Source: Promethearchaeota archaeon (GTDB lineage: Archaea; Asgardarchaeota; Lokiarchaeia; Sigyniarchaeales; SOKP01). Taken from it: 63,884 bases of DNA. The position numbers and the translations under genes were made by a program. Positions 5,668 to 21,800 of this stretch are shown piece after piece (positions within the stretch are counted from its first letter, which is position 1; each line of letters begins with the position of its first letter). The stretch covers positions 1-63,884 of the forward strand of contig JAUVXW010000025.1 in the NCBI GenBank assembly GCA_030603385.1, in the 5' to 3' direction. The notes beneath the pieces were generated by a model that was not told the origin of the DNA, did not search any database, and was given only the letters and a program-made list of their open reading frames with translations.

Positions 5668-5833
5668 AGTAATTCCCTAAAAATAGAATTATTCTTATTC
5701 ATAACTATTATTTTTTTTCTTAATTAAGATAACTATCGATTAATTTTAAAATTATTTTTCGAAACAATAAAATATAACTTAAATTGTTTAAGAAAATATA
5801 GTAAGGCATTAAACTAAGTTTTTATCAATTGAA

Positions 5834-15894: not shown

Positions 15895-17160
15895 CTATGA
15901 GCCGTTATTGTTTTTGTATTTATAGTAATCTGATTCAAAATTCGGAAATATTTTATTTTTCCTTCCTTCTTTTTCCAATTTGATGAGGCCTAGTTCATTT
16001 AGTTTATTTAAATGATAATGAATCGTTTTATGATCAACCTTGAATTTCTTTGTGATTAAATTATTCCAAATACCAGGCTCTTGTTCAATCATTTCTAAAA
16101 TTTTTAAAGTAAGTTTGCTTTTTTGTAATTTCAAATCTACATTAGATATTGGATTTTTCTGATAATAAGGAAAATACGCAATAAAGTTACCTACTCTTTT
16201 TTTTCCTATAATTTTATAAGTCTGCAGAATATCAAGATGCCAAACTAAATTTCCTGCCGCAAGCCCAGTTTTTCTTAGTAATTCGTTGAAATGGATTCCT
16301 GGTTCGTTCAGTATGAGATCAATAATTTTATTTCGATTTTCGTTTTCCAATACCTCATCTAAAGATAATCTATGAGCTCCTTTCTCAATTGATACAGTTC
16401 TTTTTCTTAAATATTGGAAATATTCCTTTTTTGATATTAAAAATGCGATTGAAAGTAGACCTACAGCAATTATCATAATAGTAAAAATTATCCAAGACCA
16501 ATCATATGGTCCTGTACTAAACTCGAAAAGTGTTACATAATATTCAGTATCACTTTCAATTTCTGTTAAAGTGCTTTCTAAGTATAACTCTGAAATTGAT
16601 TCATTAAGTTTCTCCTCTGTATCAACTAATTCCCATGCTTCTTGATTAATATTGAATATCGCTAATGAATAATTTATGTTAGAATTTAATCCAAATTGAG
16701 TTATTTTACGGTACCTAATTGTAAAATTTTGAATTGATGAATTTGATCTAATTTTAAAAATGCAGTTATATTGATATCGTAATTGGAAATTTCCTTTTTT
16801 GGGTGAACTAGGAGGGTGAGATATCCCAAAATTCCTCATATTTACTTTTGATGTTATATTTAAAGAAATTGATTCATTATTATTAAAAGCAAATGAACTT
16901 TGACGATTAGCTATCTTATTTTCATATTCTAAATAGAGATTTATTCTTGAATTTGTTGTAATTTCAAAAATAATATTATTCGGAAAGTGATAAGAAACAA
17001 ATTCATCGGATTCGACTATATCAGTCGTCCAAAATTCGGAAATGTTTTCAGTTCTCGCAGCTGCATCAGATAAAACTATACTTAATTCAAAAAGAATTAT
17101 AAATAATATTATAAGACTAAATCTGCATTTTTTCCGGTTATGTATATTTTTATAAACCAA
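15895..17160 (-). CDS. Membrane-anchored transcription regulator (ectodomain, TM helix, tandem winged HTH)
   Basis: N-terminal signal/TM, second TM near aa 222-243, then LENENRNKII..PGIHFNEL..WHL and a second HTH (HYHLNKL). Confidence 0.8.
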   Translation of the reverse strand: MVYKNIHNRKKCRFSLIILFIILFELSIVLSDAAARTENISEFWTTDIVESDEFVSYHFPNNIIFEITTNSRINLYLEYENKIANRQSSFAFNNNESISLNITSKVNMRNFGISHPPSSPKKGNFQLRYQYNCIFKIRSNSSIQNFTIRYRKITQFGLNSNINYSLAIFNINQEAWELVDTEEKLNESISELYLESTLTEIESDTEYYVTLFEFSTGPYDWSWIIFTIMIIAVGLLSIAFLISKKEYFQYLRKRTVSIEKGAHRLSLDEVLENENRNKIIDLILNEPGIHFNELLRKTGLAAGNLVWHLDILQTYKIIGKKRVGNFIAYFPYYQKNPISNVDLKLQKSKLTLKILEMIEQEPGIWNNLITKKFKVDHKTIHYHLNKLNELGLIKLEKEGRKNKIFPNFESDYYKYKNNNGS

Positions 17161-17244: not shown

Positions 17245-17925
17245 TCATTTTCTTCTTTGAAGAAATATGACTGAAATCACAGCTATGATGCCAACAATGC
17301 TTATAAGACCTATATAAAGTAGCATGTTATTTCCAGATTCAGGAATTAATACCGTCCAATATGAAAAATGGTCTGTCTCAGCGACTAAATATCCATCTTC
17401 TACTGTAGTTGGAACTGAAACCCATTCTTCTGTGGCTTCATTATAGTAAGCCCATGTTCCAACACGATTTTGATTATTTGCCTCTATTTTTAATTTAGCT
17501 TGAACTTCACCTGAATTATTACACTGAAGTGAAATACAAAAACCTTCTTGGTATAAATACCTATGTCGGTTTCGTACAGTATATCTGTTCCCCATCAACA
17601 ATCCTAATTCAGCTTGCTCTTCAGTACATGTCATATTCATTTGAAGATCTTGATCACAGTCAACTTCAATTTCAAAAGACTTGACGCCAATCCTTAAAGA
17701 ATCACAGTTAATATCTACATCGATATTAACTGTAGAATCAAATGTTAGTCTTGTCCTCAGTCGAAATCTAAACGCTACACGATTATTTGCTTGTATTCGT
17801 GTTTGATAAGTATCATCATTTATATCAATAGGAGTTTCTGCAGCTAATACAGTATTGGTACTTAACATTGTAAAAAGAATCGCTAAAGCAACGCTTCCAA
17901 TCAATATTTTATTTAATTTTTTCAT
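17245..17925 (-). CDS. Secreted/surface protein with C-terminal membrane anchor
   Basis: Signal peptide, WAYYNE..EW and TDHFSYW motifs, C-terminal TM followed by RRK. Confidence 0.8.
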   Translation of the reverse strand: MKKLNKILIGSVALAILFTMLSTNTVLAAETPIDINDDTYQTRIQANNRVAFRFRLRTRLTFDSTVNIDVDINCDSLRIGVKSFEIEVDCDQDLQMNMTCTEEQAELGLLMGNRYTVRNRHRYLYQEGFCISLQCNNSGEVQAKLKIEANNQNRVGTWAYYNEATEEWVSVPTTVEDGYLVAETDHFSYWTVLIPESGNNMLLYIGLISIVGIIAVISVIFLQRRK

Positions 17926-18118
17926 TTTTATTTAAACCAAAATTTTACTAATTGAAATAAATGAGTTTGATATAAAAAGCGTTAAGGAACATTTATCCCC
18001 ATTTAAATTTTTATAAATAAATACCAGTTTAATTATACATTCGAGTTGAATTATCGTAATATTTTTAAAACTACAAGCAATTTATTTTATAAAATACAAT
18101 TCTATTGGATTAAGAGAA

Positions 18119-18229
18119 ATGAGAACGCTTCAATTTTCATATAAATCTAGACTTAAAAATTATTCGAAGCGTTTTTTTTCATTAGGATTGCGTTTAAATG
18201 AATTAGATTTAGACTTATTATTATTATAA
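18119..18229 (+). CDS. Putative leucine-rich leader peptide of the leu operon (36 aa)
   Basis: MRTLQFSYKSRLKNYSKRFFSLGLRLNELDLDLLLL*; 11 Leu, ends TTA TTA TTA TTA TAA, 95 nt before leuA. Confidence 0.65.
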   Translation: MRTLQFSYKSRLKNYSKRFFSLGLRLNELDLDLLLL

Positions 18230-18290
18230 TAAGCCTTCTTTATCTGTGGAAGAAATATCAATACTTCTCTCATAGTAATAAGAGGGTTGT
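18119..18290 (+). promoter_or_regulatory. Candidate attenuator-like leader with alternative RNA pairings
   Basis: 18214-18223 pairs with 18273-18282; alternatively 18232-18240 pairs with 18280-18288; hairpin 18124-18131/18166-18173 runs into a T8 tract. Confidence 0.55.
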
Positions 18291-18324
18291 TAAATACTAA
18301 AGAGATTTAAAAAGGTTAAACGAA

Positions 18325-19947
18325 ATGAACGAAAAAAGCGATATTATGGTTTCCGATATGATGGAAAAAATTCGAGGGTCATTAATCCTACCCAAAAAAG
18401 CTTACTTCTTCGATACTACTCTTCGTGATGGAGAACAAACACCAGGAATTAGCTTTACACTAAAAGAAAAAATATCTATTGCCCAATCATTAAATGAACT
18501 AGGTATAGATGTAATTGAAGCAGGATTTCCAGTTATATCTCAAGGCGATTTTAAGGCATGTAAGGAAGTTGCGAAACTCGGTTTAGATTCAGAAGTAATA
18601 GGATTAGCTCGTATTAAGAAGATCGATATTGATAAGGTTATAGAAGCAGATATGGATTCAATTCATGTATTTATTGCAACTTCAGACTTGCATTTGAAAG
18701 AAAAACTAAAAATGACCAGAGAGGAAGTTATTGATAGTGTTAAAGAATTGATATCTTACGCCAAAGATCATTATTCTGATATTCAATTTTCAGCTGAAGA
18801 TGCAACACGTTCTGACTTAGACTATTTAATCAGGGTTAATCAAGCTGCCGTCGAAAGTGGAGCTACTCGAATTAACATACCAGATACTGTTGGAACAATA
18901 TCTCCAACCGCATTTGGATATATTGTTAGGAAAAATTATGAATTATTACCTAAAAATGTGCGGATTGCAGTGCACTGCCATAATGATTTTGGCTTAGCTG
19001 TGGCAAATACAATAGCCGGATTTGAAAGTGGGGCTTCCGAAGCTCAGACAACAATATTAGGGTTAGGTGAAAGAGCGGGAAATGCGTCATTTGAAGAAAC
19101 TGCTATGTCTCTTTATGCGTTATATCAAATTCCAATGCAGATAAATACAAGATTGATTTTTCCAACAGCAAAATTAGTTGAAAGTCTATGTGGGGGGAAA
19201 ATAACTATTGGTCGATTAACCCCGTTAATTGGTCAGAATGCATTTGCTCACGAATCAGGTATTCACGCCCATGCAATGATTCAGCACGCTCGTTCATACG
19301 AGCCTATAACGCCAGAATTAATAGGTATTAGACGTTCTGACAATGTTGAAGAAATAATTAGGCAGTCAATAAAATTGGGAAAACATACAGGAGGTCATGC
19401 ACTTAAAGCAAAATTAGAAGATTTAAGTATTCTTACTACGGACGTTCAATTTTCCAATATTATGGAACATGTTAAGGCTTTTGGAGATAAAGGACATGAG
19501 GTAACGGAAGAAGATTTCTATGCAATTTTAAAAGATGTTTTCGGAGAACTACCCGAAGAAGATCAATTCGTAAAACTCGAAGAATTAACAGTTTTAACTG
19601 GCTCTGTTATTCCTACATCTACTGTACGTTTAAAGATTGATGATAATGGAAATAGCATTGAAAAGATAGCCTCATCAATAGGGGTTGGAGCTGTAGATGC
19701 ATCAGTTAACGCAATTATTAAATGCTTTAAGCCGATGAGCAAGATTAAGTTATTAAATTATCAAATTGATGCTATAACAGGGGGAACTGAAGCATTAGCC
19801 CATACTACTATTGAAATTATGGATATTGAAAGCAATCACATCGTAAAAGCAAGTGCAACTCATGAAGATATCGTAATGAGCTCAGTTTTATCACTATTAA
19901 AAGGACTTAACCTTATAGTCAAGAAAAAAAATTCATCAAGCAATTAA
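18325..19947 (+). CDS. leuA: 2-isopropylmalate synthase (LeuA/CimA family)
   Basis: DTTLRDGEQ, HCHNDFG, GLGERAGN, HESGIH; C-terminal regulatory domain; upstream of leuCD. Confidence 0.9.
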   Translation: MNEKSDIMVSDMMEKIRGSLILPKKAYFFDTTLRDGEQTPGISFTLKEKISIAQSLNELGIDVIEAGFPVISQGDFKACKEVAKLGLDSEVIGLARIKKIDIDKVIEADMDSIHVFIATSDLHLKEKLKMTREEVIDSVKELISYAKDHYSDIQFSAEDATRSDLDYLIRVNQAAVESGATRINIPDTVGTISPTAFGYIVRKNYELLPKNVRIAVHCHNDFGLAVANTIAGFESGASEAQTTILGLGERAGNASFEETAMSLYALYQIPMQINTRLIFPTAKLVESLCGGKITIGRLTPLIGQNAFAHESGIHAHAMIQHARSYEPITPELIGIRRSDNVEEIIRQSIKLGKHTGGHALKAKLEDLSILTTDVQFSNIMEHVKAFGDKGHEVTEEDFYAILKDVFGELPEEDQFVKLEELTVLTGSVIPTSTVRLKIDDNGNSIEKIASSIGVGAVDASVNAIIKCFKPMSKIKLLNYQIDAITGGTEALAHTTIEIMDIESNHIVKASATHEDIVMSSVLSLLKGLNLIVKKKNSSSN

Positions 19948-20014: not shown

Positions 20015-21289
20015 ATGGAGTTAACAATAACAGAGAAAATCTTGAGAGCCCATTGTGACAATAAGTCTGTTGTTGCCGGAGATTTTATCTTAGCCAACAT
20101 TGATCGCTGTTTAGCAAATGATATTACTGCTCCTATAGCTATAGAGGTTTTTGAAAGTGTCGTTGAAGGAACAGATAGAAGCCTTTTCGATAATGAAAAG
20201 ATTATACTAATTCCAGACCATTTTACACCAAATAAAGATGTCGTCTCAGCAATACAGTGTCAAATACTCAGAGAATTTGCTTATAAATATAACATTTTAA
20301 ATTATTTTGAAGTTGGTCGTGGTGGAATTGAACATTGTCTTATACCAGAGCAAGGATTAGTAGCTCCAGGAGAGGTTTTTATAGGTGCCGACTCTCATAC
20401 TTGCACATATGGCGCTCTTGGTGCTTTCTCAACAGGTGTTGGTTCTACAGATTTAGGTGTTGCAATGGCTTTAGGAAAATGTTGGCTTAAAATACCTGAA
20501 TCTATGCAATTTGTTTTTTCAGGAGAATTAAATAAATGGGTTTCTGGTAAAGACTTAATTTTGTACATAATTGGCAAAATCGGTGTTGATGGGGCTACTT
20601 ATAAAGCTATGGAATTTACTGGAGGTGTTATTAAAAATTTTTCCATGGACAATAGATTTACAATGTGCAATATGGCAATTGAAGCAGGCGCTAAAAACGG
20701 AATTATTGAACCGGATAAAATTACCTTAGATTATTTGGAAAAGGCTGGAAATTCTAAATATAAAATCTATGAAAGTGATAAAAATGCTGAATACATTGAT
20801 ATTATAGAATTTGAATGTAAAAATATTGAACCACAGGTTGCGTTACCTCCTTTACCTGAAAATTCTAAACCAATTTCAGAAGTAAACAATATGAGAGTGG
20901 AAATAGATCAATCAATAATAGGTTCTTGTACTAATGGTCGCATGGAAGACTTGAAAATTGCTGCGAATATTTTAAAACAACAAAAAATTCATCGTAATGT
21001 AAGGTGTATTATTATTCCAGGTACTCAAAATATATATCTTCAAGCATTAAAAGAAGGATTAATAGAGATTTTTATTGATGCTGGTGCGATTGTTTCAACT
21101 CCTACCTGCGGTCCTTGTTTAGGAGGACATATGGGGATTCTTGCAGCCGGAGAAAAAGCAATCTCAACAACAAATAGGAATTTTAAAGGCAGGATGGGAC
21201 ATATAGAAAGTGAAGTGTATTTATCAAGCCCCGCTATTGCTGCTGCCTCGGCTATTAAGGGATATATTACATCACCAGAATTTATTTAG
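20015..21289 (+). CDS. leuC: 3-isopropylmalate dehydratase large subunit
   Basis: [34 protein letters not shown]. Confidence 0.95.
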
Positions 21290-21299
21290 GGTGAAAATA

Positions 21300-21800
21300 A
21301 TGATTGGTAAAGTAATAAAATATGATATGAAAGATATTAATACGGATTTGATCATTCCCGCAAGGTATTTAACTACGTCTGACTCTGAATATCTAGCTAA
21401 ACACTGCATGGAAGATCTAGATGCCAAATTTATCGAAAAAAAAATCAAATATGGCTATACAATATTGGTTGCGGGATCGAATTTCGGATGCGGTTCAAGC
21501 AGAGAACAAGCACCAATTGTTCTTAAATCAGTAGGAATCAAATGTATAATAGCCTACTCTTTTGCAAGGATATTTTTTAGAAATGCGATAAATATAGGAC
21601 TGCCAATAATTGAGTGTAACAACATTGAAGCAATAAATACTGGTGATGAATTAGAAATTAGTTTTACAGAAGGAATTATTAAAAATCTCTCTACAAATTC
21701 TGATTTTAGTGTAAAGAAAATGCCTTCTTTTATAGAAGAGATCGTATCCGATGACGGTTTGATTAATTATGCAAGACGCATAATTTTAAAGAATACCTAA
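21300..21800 (+). CDS. leuD: 3-isopropylmalate dehydratase small subunit
   Basis: INTDLIIPARYL, NFGCGSSREQA, SFARIFFRNAINIG; ATG 21300 follows a GGGTGA SD. Confidence 0.95.
   Translation: MIGKVIKYDMKDINTDLIIPARYLTTSDSEYLAKHCMEDLDAKFIEKKIKYGYTILVAGSNFGCGSSREQAPIVLKSVGIKCIIAYSFARIFFRNAINIGLPIIECNNIEAINTGDELEISFTEGIIKNLSTNSDFSVKKMPSFIEEIVSDDGLINYARRIILKNT

Follow-up and report, generated by a model that had tools for sequence, protein, structure and literature searches.

Upstream of the leuACD operon of an uncultured Promethearchaeota archaeon lies a short open reading frame (uORF) that, judged from its sequence and from those of its relatives, is very probably a ribosome-sensed leucine leader of this operon. 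Leucine sensing is the only reading that covers together the open frame itself, the bias towards Leu at its end with synonymous change of the codons, and the direct abutment of its stop codon on a downstream RNA hairpin. The uORF is found in contig JAUVXW010000025.1 (assembly GCA_030603385.1), the whole analysed stretch of which (63,884 nucleotides) we refer to as the window. An original prediction had proposed ribosome-sensed leucine control in an Asgard archaeon for this site, and the core of that proposal is supported by the conservation of the Leu codons in frame and by two covarying hairpins, termed P0 and P2, around the uORF. This small gene and the two structured RNA elements had been missed by the automatic annotation of these metagenome-assembled genomes.

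Table 1 Features of the putative leucine leader and of the leuACD operon in the window.
Feature	Position	Strand	Details
Promoter-like A/T box 1 (TATTTTTAAAA), candidate BRE/TATA	18060-18070	+	About -59 to -49 from uORF ATG
Promoter-like A/T box 2 (TTTATTTTATAAAATA), alternative TATA box or operator	18081-18096	+	About -38 to -23 from uORF ATG
GGATT, weak Shine-Dalgarno-like motif	18107-18111	+	8-12 nt before uORF ATG
Putative leader uORF	18119-18229	+	36 codons plus stop; second in-frame TAA at 18230-18232
Hairpin P0	18121-18176	+	Core AACGCUUC (18124-18131) pairs with GAAGCGUU (18166-18173); minimum-energy fold
T8 tract	18172-18179	+	Inside the uORF, directly 3' of the 3' arm of P0
Leu-rich segment (putative sensor)	18182-18226	+	15 codons, 9 Leu; terminal (TTA)4 at 18215-18226
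Hairpin P2	18227-18292	+	Outer stem CCUUCUU (18234-18240) with AAGAGGG (18280-18286)
A-rich spacer with leuA Shine-Dalgarno AAGGTT (18312-18317)	18293-18324	+	AGGT 8-13 nt before ATG in most relatives
leuA, 2-isopropylmalate synthase, 540 aa	18325-19947	+	NF002085, 569.8 bits, above cut-off
leuC, 3-isopropylmalate dehydratase large subunit	20015-21289	+	TIGR02083, 673.7 bits, above cut-off
leuD, small subunit	21210-21800	+	TIGR02087, above cut-off; match begins at residue 33 of the listed ORF

The uORF encodes the peptide MRTLQFSYKSRLKNYSKRFFSLGLRLNELDLDLLLL, and its four terminal TTA codons are followed directly by the tandem stop codons TAA TAA (18227-18232). The original prediction had described a 36-codon frame with nine Leu among its last 15 codons, ending in (TTA)4 and separated from leuA by 95 nt, and all of these coordinates proved correct, with the leuA ATG at 18325. 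Downstream, leuA is followed by leuC and leuD, and the true start of leuD probably lies downstream of 21289. The genes 3' of leuACD have no relation to leucine synthesis (first an ORF without a Pfam or NCBIfam match, then a gene of the RmuC family), and the gene upstream of the leader is divergent. Two genes upstream of the leader, on the minus strand (15895-17160), we also noted a 421-residue protein with two C-terminal winged-helix DNA-binding domains (HVO_0163-type, ArsR/MarR-type). Both the window and the genome have a G+C content of ~30%, and TTA is the commonest Leu codon of the genome.

To gauge how often such a Leu-rich tail arises by chance, we masked all ORFs of at least 110 residues across the 3.9-Mb assembly and gathered each stop codon with 15 open codons before it. 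At least nine Leu codons occurred in 2 of the 22,199 open non-coding 15-codon tails obtained in this manner, one of the two being the uORF before leuA. The odds of such a tail are ~1e-4 per non-coding tail, and this one is located exactly before leuA. Tails with eight Leu, Ile, Phe or Lys in 15 codons are commoner and stand before genes of unrelated function, among them polB, gyrB and a gene for a sugar kinase, and for this reason the Leu-tail pattern within the single genome is suggestive, not conclusive.

The comparison across Promethearchaeota extends this pattern beyond the single genome. We drew leuA orthologues from 16 relatives and from 57 Promethearchaeota species genomes, and assembled 58 sequences, consisting of 54 Promethearchaeota leuA loci with enough upstream DNA together with the window and the loci L010, L011 and L013. 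A Leu-rich uORF of 30-38 codons is present at each of these 58 loci, which represent more than 50 species and whose leuA genes are 63-95% identical to that of the window; its stop codon lies 82-101 nt before the leuA ATG at all loci but a few. Among the 54 distinct tails, Leu makes up 71% of the last 12 codons in the uORF frame (mean of 8.5 Leu), while the other two frames would encode mostly Tyr or Ile, with 15% stop codons in frame 1. All six Leu codons are used in these tails (TTA 330, TTG 47, CTT 43, CTC 20, CTA 15 and CTG 3), and the terminal Leu run comprises 4-7 codons in 46 of the 54. In-frame conservation with synonymous variation, a check that had been set beforehand, is thus borne out, the Leu run being kept in all 58 sequences with six Leu codons in use. 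At the peptide level, the length, a basic N-terminus (M-K/R-x-L/T-Q) and the hydrophobic tail are maintained, the middle varies freely, and the Leu tail is broken by D, E or N in relatives. We saw no Leu-rich uORF before leuA in L012 (family f2) or in the G+C-richer loci L014-L017 (families f3 and f4), and the cultured Asgard genomes in our sample lack this leuA.

Folding with covariation, which had likewise been suggested as a check, revealed that the two hairpins P0 and P2 covary around the uORF. The stem of P0 begins 2 nt after the A of the uORF AUG, with nucleotides 3-14 of the uORF pairing with nucleotides 45-58, and in some species the AUG itself is included. P0 was tested on a gap-free MAFFT alignment of 20 species that was not fitted to any structure model. 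In this alignment, 80.8% of cells were paired, compared with 74.4% after shuffling (0 of 500 shuffles reached 80.8%) and at most 54% when the partner was slid, and four base pairs showed compensatory change. The full T8 tract immediately following P0 is kept by the closest relatives only, and a U/C-rich tract is kept at this place by all relatives. Oligo-T stretches are pause and termination signals in archaea, and the T8 or U-rich tract may have a role in pausing; the arrangement of P0 and T8 resembles a hairpin plus oligo-U pause or termination site ahead of the Leu codons.

P2 is a strong hairpin that directly follows the Leu codons. The pairing of the stop codons UAAUAA with UUGUUA lengthens its outer stem, and it encloses inner stems formed by 18244-18249 with 18270-18275 and by 18251-18254 with 18265-18268. 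Its position is tightly held: relative to the end of the stop codon it starts at -3 to +5 nt in 58 of 58 sequences, and it ends 32-43 nt before the leuA ATG in 54 of 58, with folding energies between -11 and -28 kcal/mol across the set. The arms differ by clade, occurring as CCUUCUU/AAGAGGG, GCCUCUUAGAUU/AAUUUAAGAGGC, CCCCUCUC/GGGGGG and GCUACCUUG/CAAGGUUAGC. A covariance model of P2 (model R1), built on 15 close sequences, recovers P2 at the leuA loci of Promethearchaeota that were searched, and at none from other archaea; it found no match in L012 or L014-L017, and no second copy of the element elsewhere in the genome. In an alignment fitted to model R1, which favours the structure, 82.8% of cells were paired compared with 62.4% after shuffling. 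The covariation score in this same, structure-favouring alignment was 0.587, against 0.258 for shuffled sequences and at most 0.175 for slid partners, and compensatory change was found in 21 of 21 P2 pairs of the model-fitted alignment. No pairs came out of consensus folding when the whole leader was simply aligned with MAFFT, because the hairpin arms are then misaligned across clades. The hairpin loops vary in both length and sequence, with no conserved unpaired positions, and an Rfam scan of 17900-18400 at E-values up to 10 returned no leader family, its chance hits falling far below the gathering scores.

According to the original prediction, no hairpin with a U-tract follows the Leu codons. 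P2 contradicts the first half of this statement; the second half stands, with the longest U run within 12 nt of P2 being at most three nucleotides in 49 of the 58 sequences, and with zero sites in a scan for bacterial-type intrinsic terminators between the uORF and leuA. Without such a tract, P2 is unlikely to act as an intrinsic terminator. Its 5' arm is rich in pyrimidines and similar to the 3' end of 16S rRNA (ACCUCCUU in L055), and its purine-rich 3' arm is often more strongly Shine-Dalgarno-like than the leuA Shine-Dalgarno sequence itself, with mean energies of -7.0 versus -4.3 kcal/mol against the anti-Shine-Dalgarno. We considered the 3' arm as the Shine-Dalgarno sequence of a nearby start and rejected this on inspection of the sequences, which revealed no conserved start codon or short ORF downstream.

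On the promoter side, two A/T-rich boxes upstream of the uORF are putative promoter elements. Box 1 is kept as TTTTTAA, TTTATAA or TTATTAA at about -60 to -50 in nearly all 58 relatives, and box 2 is conserved in sequence and in position relative to the uORF ATG, at about -38 to -25. No conserved TATA-like box was seen inside the leader in the 20-species 5' alignment. Conserved promoter-like boxes thus stand ahead of the uORF and are lacking inside the leader, from which we infer that the uORF lies on the leuA transcript. A candidate internal promoter at TTTAAAAA (18307-18314) was dismissed, as it lies only 11-18 nt before the ATG of an N-terminus conserved at the protein level; the N-terminal LeuA residues K-x-D/E-I-x-V-S are conserved as protein, including in G+C-rich relatives. 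The Shine-Dalgarno sequences of the genome are of the GGAGGTGAT type, about 10-17 nt before the start codon, and the weaker motif before the uORF recurs in relatives as GGATT, GGGAT or GGAAT at the same distance, a GGAT-like motif being kept at -14 to -9. In L042, L049 and L066, 20-40 extra nucleotides separate the conserved AGGT motif from the leuA ATG, so that the spacing of AGGT is kept with respect to P2 but not to the start codon, and in L049 a new Shine-Dalgarno-like GAAGGA adjoins the leuA ATG. These cases hint that the AGGT motif may have a role beyond ribosome binding.

The original prediction had also proposed a switch between two competing pairings, one between the Leu tract and a downstream segment and one between the arms of what we now call P2. 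Both exist in the window: 18214-18224 is 91% complementary to 18272-18282, with an energy of -9.8 kcal/mol for the Leu tract against the 3' half of P2 compared with -3.8 for shuffles, and the stem 18234-18240 with 18280-18286 is part of the minimum-energy fold. As a conserved switch the proposal did not hold up, since the Leu-tract pairing is absent in close relatives such as L035-L038 and amounts to a weak tendency across the family, with a mean of -4.6 versus -3.4 kcal/mol and 22% of sequences ranking at or below 0.05. The family leaders examined offer the 3' arm of P2 no other partner that we could find, nor do they show a conserved, mutually exclusive antiterminator.

We then asked how the Leu tract relates to the leuA ribosome-binding site (RBS). 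Across this region the tract forms a mean of 8.3 pair-equivalents, no better than the 9.7 of a composition-matched shuffle. As the real tract pairs no better than a shuffled one, it is base composition and geometry that speak for a Leu-tract/RBS interaction, and specific covariation does not. The minimum-energy fold in family f2 shows direct pairing of the CUU Leu codons with the leuA Shine-Dalgarno AAGGAG. In the ribosome-free fold, the unpaired fraction of the leuA RBS is 0.54, more open than the genome average of 0.44; with the RBS already half open before any ribosome is placed, the predicted dynamic range is small. Masking the footprint of a ribosome whose A site is 4-6 codons before the stop raised the unpaired fraction from 0.54 to 0.66-0.67 (75% of 51 leaders), while the same footprint, masked equally far ahead of 300 other genes in the genome, gave a change of 0.000 +/- 0.054. 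The difference between leaders and the 300 control genes has a Mann-Whitney p of 1e-12, to be read with the leaders being related to one another. A mask at the first Leu codons, at least 12 codons before the stop, barely altered accessibility.

Based on these observations, we propose translation of the uORF, ribosome stalling and an output step as follows. Transcription would begin at the conserved promoter upstream of the uORF, and a ribosome would load on the uORF, with P0 later closing the start region. This ribosome would then move into the 15-codon segment, ~60-70% leucine, which runs up to the stop codon. A shortage of charged tRNA-Leu would leave it parked on the Leu segment; when leucine is plentiful, it would reach the stop codon and leave. 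For the output, our preferred reading, held tentatively on modest support from folding in silico, is translational unmasking of the leuA RBS by the stalled ribosome. P2 may serve as a clamp that brings the U-rich Leu tract beside the A-rich RBS spacer, allowing a weak, AU-rich extension of P2 to form. A parked ribosome would keep this extension open, leaving the leuA RBS free for more synthesis of LeuA, LeuC and LeuD, whereas a ribosome-free leader would refold and leuA initiation would be damped. The geometry of the control codons is consistent with this and with translational attenuators such as those of the ermC/cat type, for the Leu run reaches as far as the stop codon, where P2 and its AU extension begin in 58 of 58 sequences, so that a stalled ribosome would cover one strand of the duplex.

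The main rival keeps the same sensor and gives it a transcriptional output, with the position of the ribosome deciding the folding of P2 during transcription; we regard it as unlikely, if far from negligible. FttA/aCPSF1 is the archaeal functional counterpart of Rho. On this account, a ribosome that has not stalled would sit at the stop codon and cover the 5' arm of P2 as the 3' arm leaves the polymerase, and with P2 blocked, naked RNA behind an uncoupled RNA polymerase would allow the termination factor (FttA/aCPSF1) to act. A ribosome stalled anywhere in the Leu segment would instead let P2 fold, leaving little free RNA and permitting read-through into leuA. Every Leu codon would contribute in this case, which explains the spread of Leu over 15 codons better than a translational output does, and the abutment of the stop codon on P2 in 58 of 58 sequences is the classical geometry of an attenuator in which a ribosome at the stop blocks a protective structure. 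The 5' arm of P2, which adjoins the stop codon, is moreover pyrimidine-rich. In the trp leader, a pause hairpin synchronises polymerase and ribosome, and P0 with the U-rich tract ahead of the Leu segment resembles such a hairpin. Against a transcriptional output stand the lack of a terminator signal after P2, evident from the short U runs in 49 of the 58 sequences and the empty terminator scan, and the failure to find an alternative partner for the 3' arm. We know of no established effect of hairpins on archaeal RNA polymerase, hairpin-dependent termination included. Polarity and factor-dependent termination tied to uncoupling do occur in archaea (PMC13681488).

Other explanations dispense with leucine sensing. 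The leader RNA could be the binding site of a regulatory protein or small molecule at P0 and P2, with the uORF incidental or non-sensing; two conserved hairpins with a conserved spacer motif would suit such a site, one of the two promoter-proximal boxes could be an operator, and a protein factor has been preferred for the actinobacterial LEU element (PMC1262725). We nevertheless consider this improbable, as it leaves unexplained an open frame of 30-38 codons in DNA of ~25% G+C, and equally the 71% Leu with synonymous changes in a run that ends exactly at the stop codon beside P2; moreover, the hairpin loops are variable, with no conserved unpaired positions, and the Rfam scan gave no match. 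Still less probable, to a degree that makes it very doubtful, is that the uORF encodes a small hydrophobic protein with its own function, co-expressed with leuA, and that the hairpins serve mRNA stability or processing. The conserved peptide length, basic N-terminus and hydrophobic tail speak for a protein, but the conserved N-terminus overlaps the arms of P0 and can hence be explained at the RNA level, the middle is variable, and the Leu tail has D, E or N interruptions and lacks the length of a membrane helix. The strict link to leuA, with the element occurring once per genome, also argues against it, and the occurrence in this genome of a Cys-run uORF ahead of a cysteine synthase gene fits sensing, not a peptide function. 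The last explanation, a chance ORF over an AT-rich TTA microsatellite, could appeal to the ~30% G+C content, to TTA as the commonest Leu codon and to the Leu-, Ile-, Phe- and Lys-rich tails (8 of 15 codons) before unrelated genes. It is refuted and retains practically no probability: the Leu run is kept in frame with synonymous change, and therefore the microsatellite reading fails, facing an in-frame run in 58 sequences, the use of six Leu codons, a frequency of 2 in 22,199 tails and the covarying hairpins.

The original prediction had suggested looking for cognate leaders upstream of other amino-acid operons, which yielded one candidate in this genome, the Cys-run uORF just mentioned, while the rest of the genome scan was mostly noise. 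This uORF lies outside the window (G000:C34:56440-56650, corresponding to L111:140-350), comprises 35 codons ending in FNCCIFGCCC, and has its stop codon 86 nt before a cysteine synthase gene of the cysK/cysM family. Five Cys in 15 codons occur in two non-coding tails of the whole genome. The sequence ACAACA immediately 3' of the stop codon can pair with its Cys codons, and a second hairpin lies downstream; this uORF looks like the cysteine counterpart of the leucine leader. Elsewhere, the scan returned Ile-, Leu- and Phe-rich tails before polB, gyrB, dnaQ-like and sugar kinase genes, and no cognate leader was found upstream of the hisG and ilvB-like genes of this genome. An Ile-rich uORF (MIIITSQIIIS, 7 of 15 Ile) in G000:C27, 155 nt before a match to ileS at 5797, one of two copies of that gene, was set aside as being within chance level, because 62 tails of the genome have seven Ile.

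A Leu leader before leuA is also seen in a second archaeal phylum, the Altiarchaeota, in DNA of 41-47% G+C. In L101, L102, L105, L106 and L109 (and L099), a conserved leader of 30-40 residues is located ~60-250 nt upstream of leuA, with a run of 5-7 Leu (encoded by TTG, CTT, CTG, TTA and CTA) followed by R-L/Q-R-A/E and the stop codon. A G+C-rich hairpin, GCGAGNG with CUCGC, has its 5' arm over the last codons and the stop. The origin of this leader looks independent of that in Promethearchaeia. Taking the leuACD leaders of Promethearchaeia (two families), the leuA leaders of Altiarchaeota and the poly-Cys uORF together, we think it reasonably likely that archaea have ribosome-mediated amino-acid-sensing leaders forming an archaeal 'ribulon', and, as part of the same judgement, that this ribulon has no bacterial-type terminator and works by RBS unmasking or by coupling-dependent, FttA-type termination.

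That such leaders are poorly documented in archaea, as the original prediction put it, agrees with our literature search, which returned bacterial precedents only and no report of leader-peptide attenuation in archaea. If our reading is true, ribosome-mediated attenuation extends to archaea in a terminator-free form, the prokaryotes most closely related to eukaryotes gauge a metabolite by means of the translating ribosome, and the leader design functions without the bacterial intrinsic terminator. The leader would then also provide a compact natural test object for archaeal transcription-translation coupling and for the link of this coupling to termination or initiation.

Leader-peptide attenuation is a textbook bacterial mechanism, and the archaeal leader shares with leuL (RF00512, Leu_leader), trpL, hisL and pheL a short uORF with clustered codons for the end product, placed before the first biosynthetic gene. 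As in classical attenuators, the fate of a hairpin would be set by the position of the ribosome, and a hairpin ahead of the control codons could cause pausing. Unlike the leuL type, the archaeal leader has no Rfam match, no G+C-rich terminator with a U-tract and no conserved antiterminator; unlike classical attenuators in general, its Leu codons reach the end of the ORF, its stop codon touches the hairpin, and the polymerase is archaeal. The tna operon (TnaC) and Rho-dependent attenuators offer a likeness in one respect, having a leader stop codon beside the RNA on which a termination factor acts and no intrinsic terminator. To our knowledge archaea lack Rho, and by analogy FttA/aCPSF1 would have to take its part.

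Alike in layout is the LEU element of actinobacteria (PMC1262725), in which an upstream ORF with a run of Leu codons precedes leuA in a compact arrangement with no classical terminator. In the basal stem of the LEU element, the Leu-codon run pairs with the Shine-Dalgarno region of leuA, and the same picture is seen in our family f2 folds. In most species studied here, by contrast, the basal stem is AU-rich and weak, and the LEU element further differs in its pseudoknot and its G+C-rich bacterial hosts, with no sequence relation seen. Referring to mutation experiments done earlier, its authors (Seliverstov et al. 2005) doubted leader-peptide control and favoured a protein factor instead of attenuation (PMC1262725). 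The leaderless poly-Cys short ORFs of mycobacteria, termed a 'ribulon' (Canestrari et al., 10.1101/834739), form a bacterial system that has been experimentally tested and in which a duplex sequesters the RBS directly (10.1101/834739), whereas here the 3' arm of P2 stops 32-43 nt short of the ATG, and the RBS region would be reached by no more than a weak extension. Both systems have a short 5'-proximal ORF that ends in a run of codons for a single amino acid.
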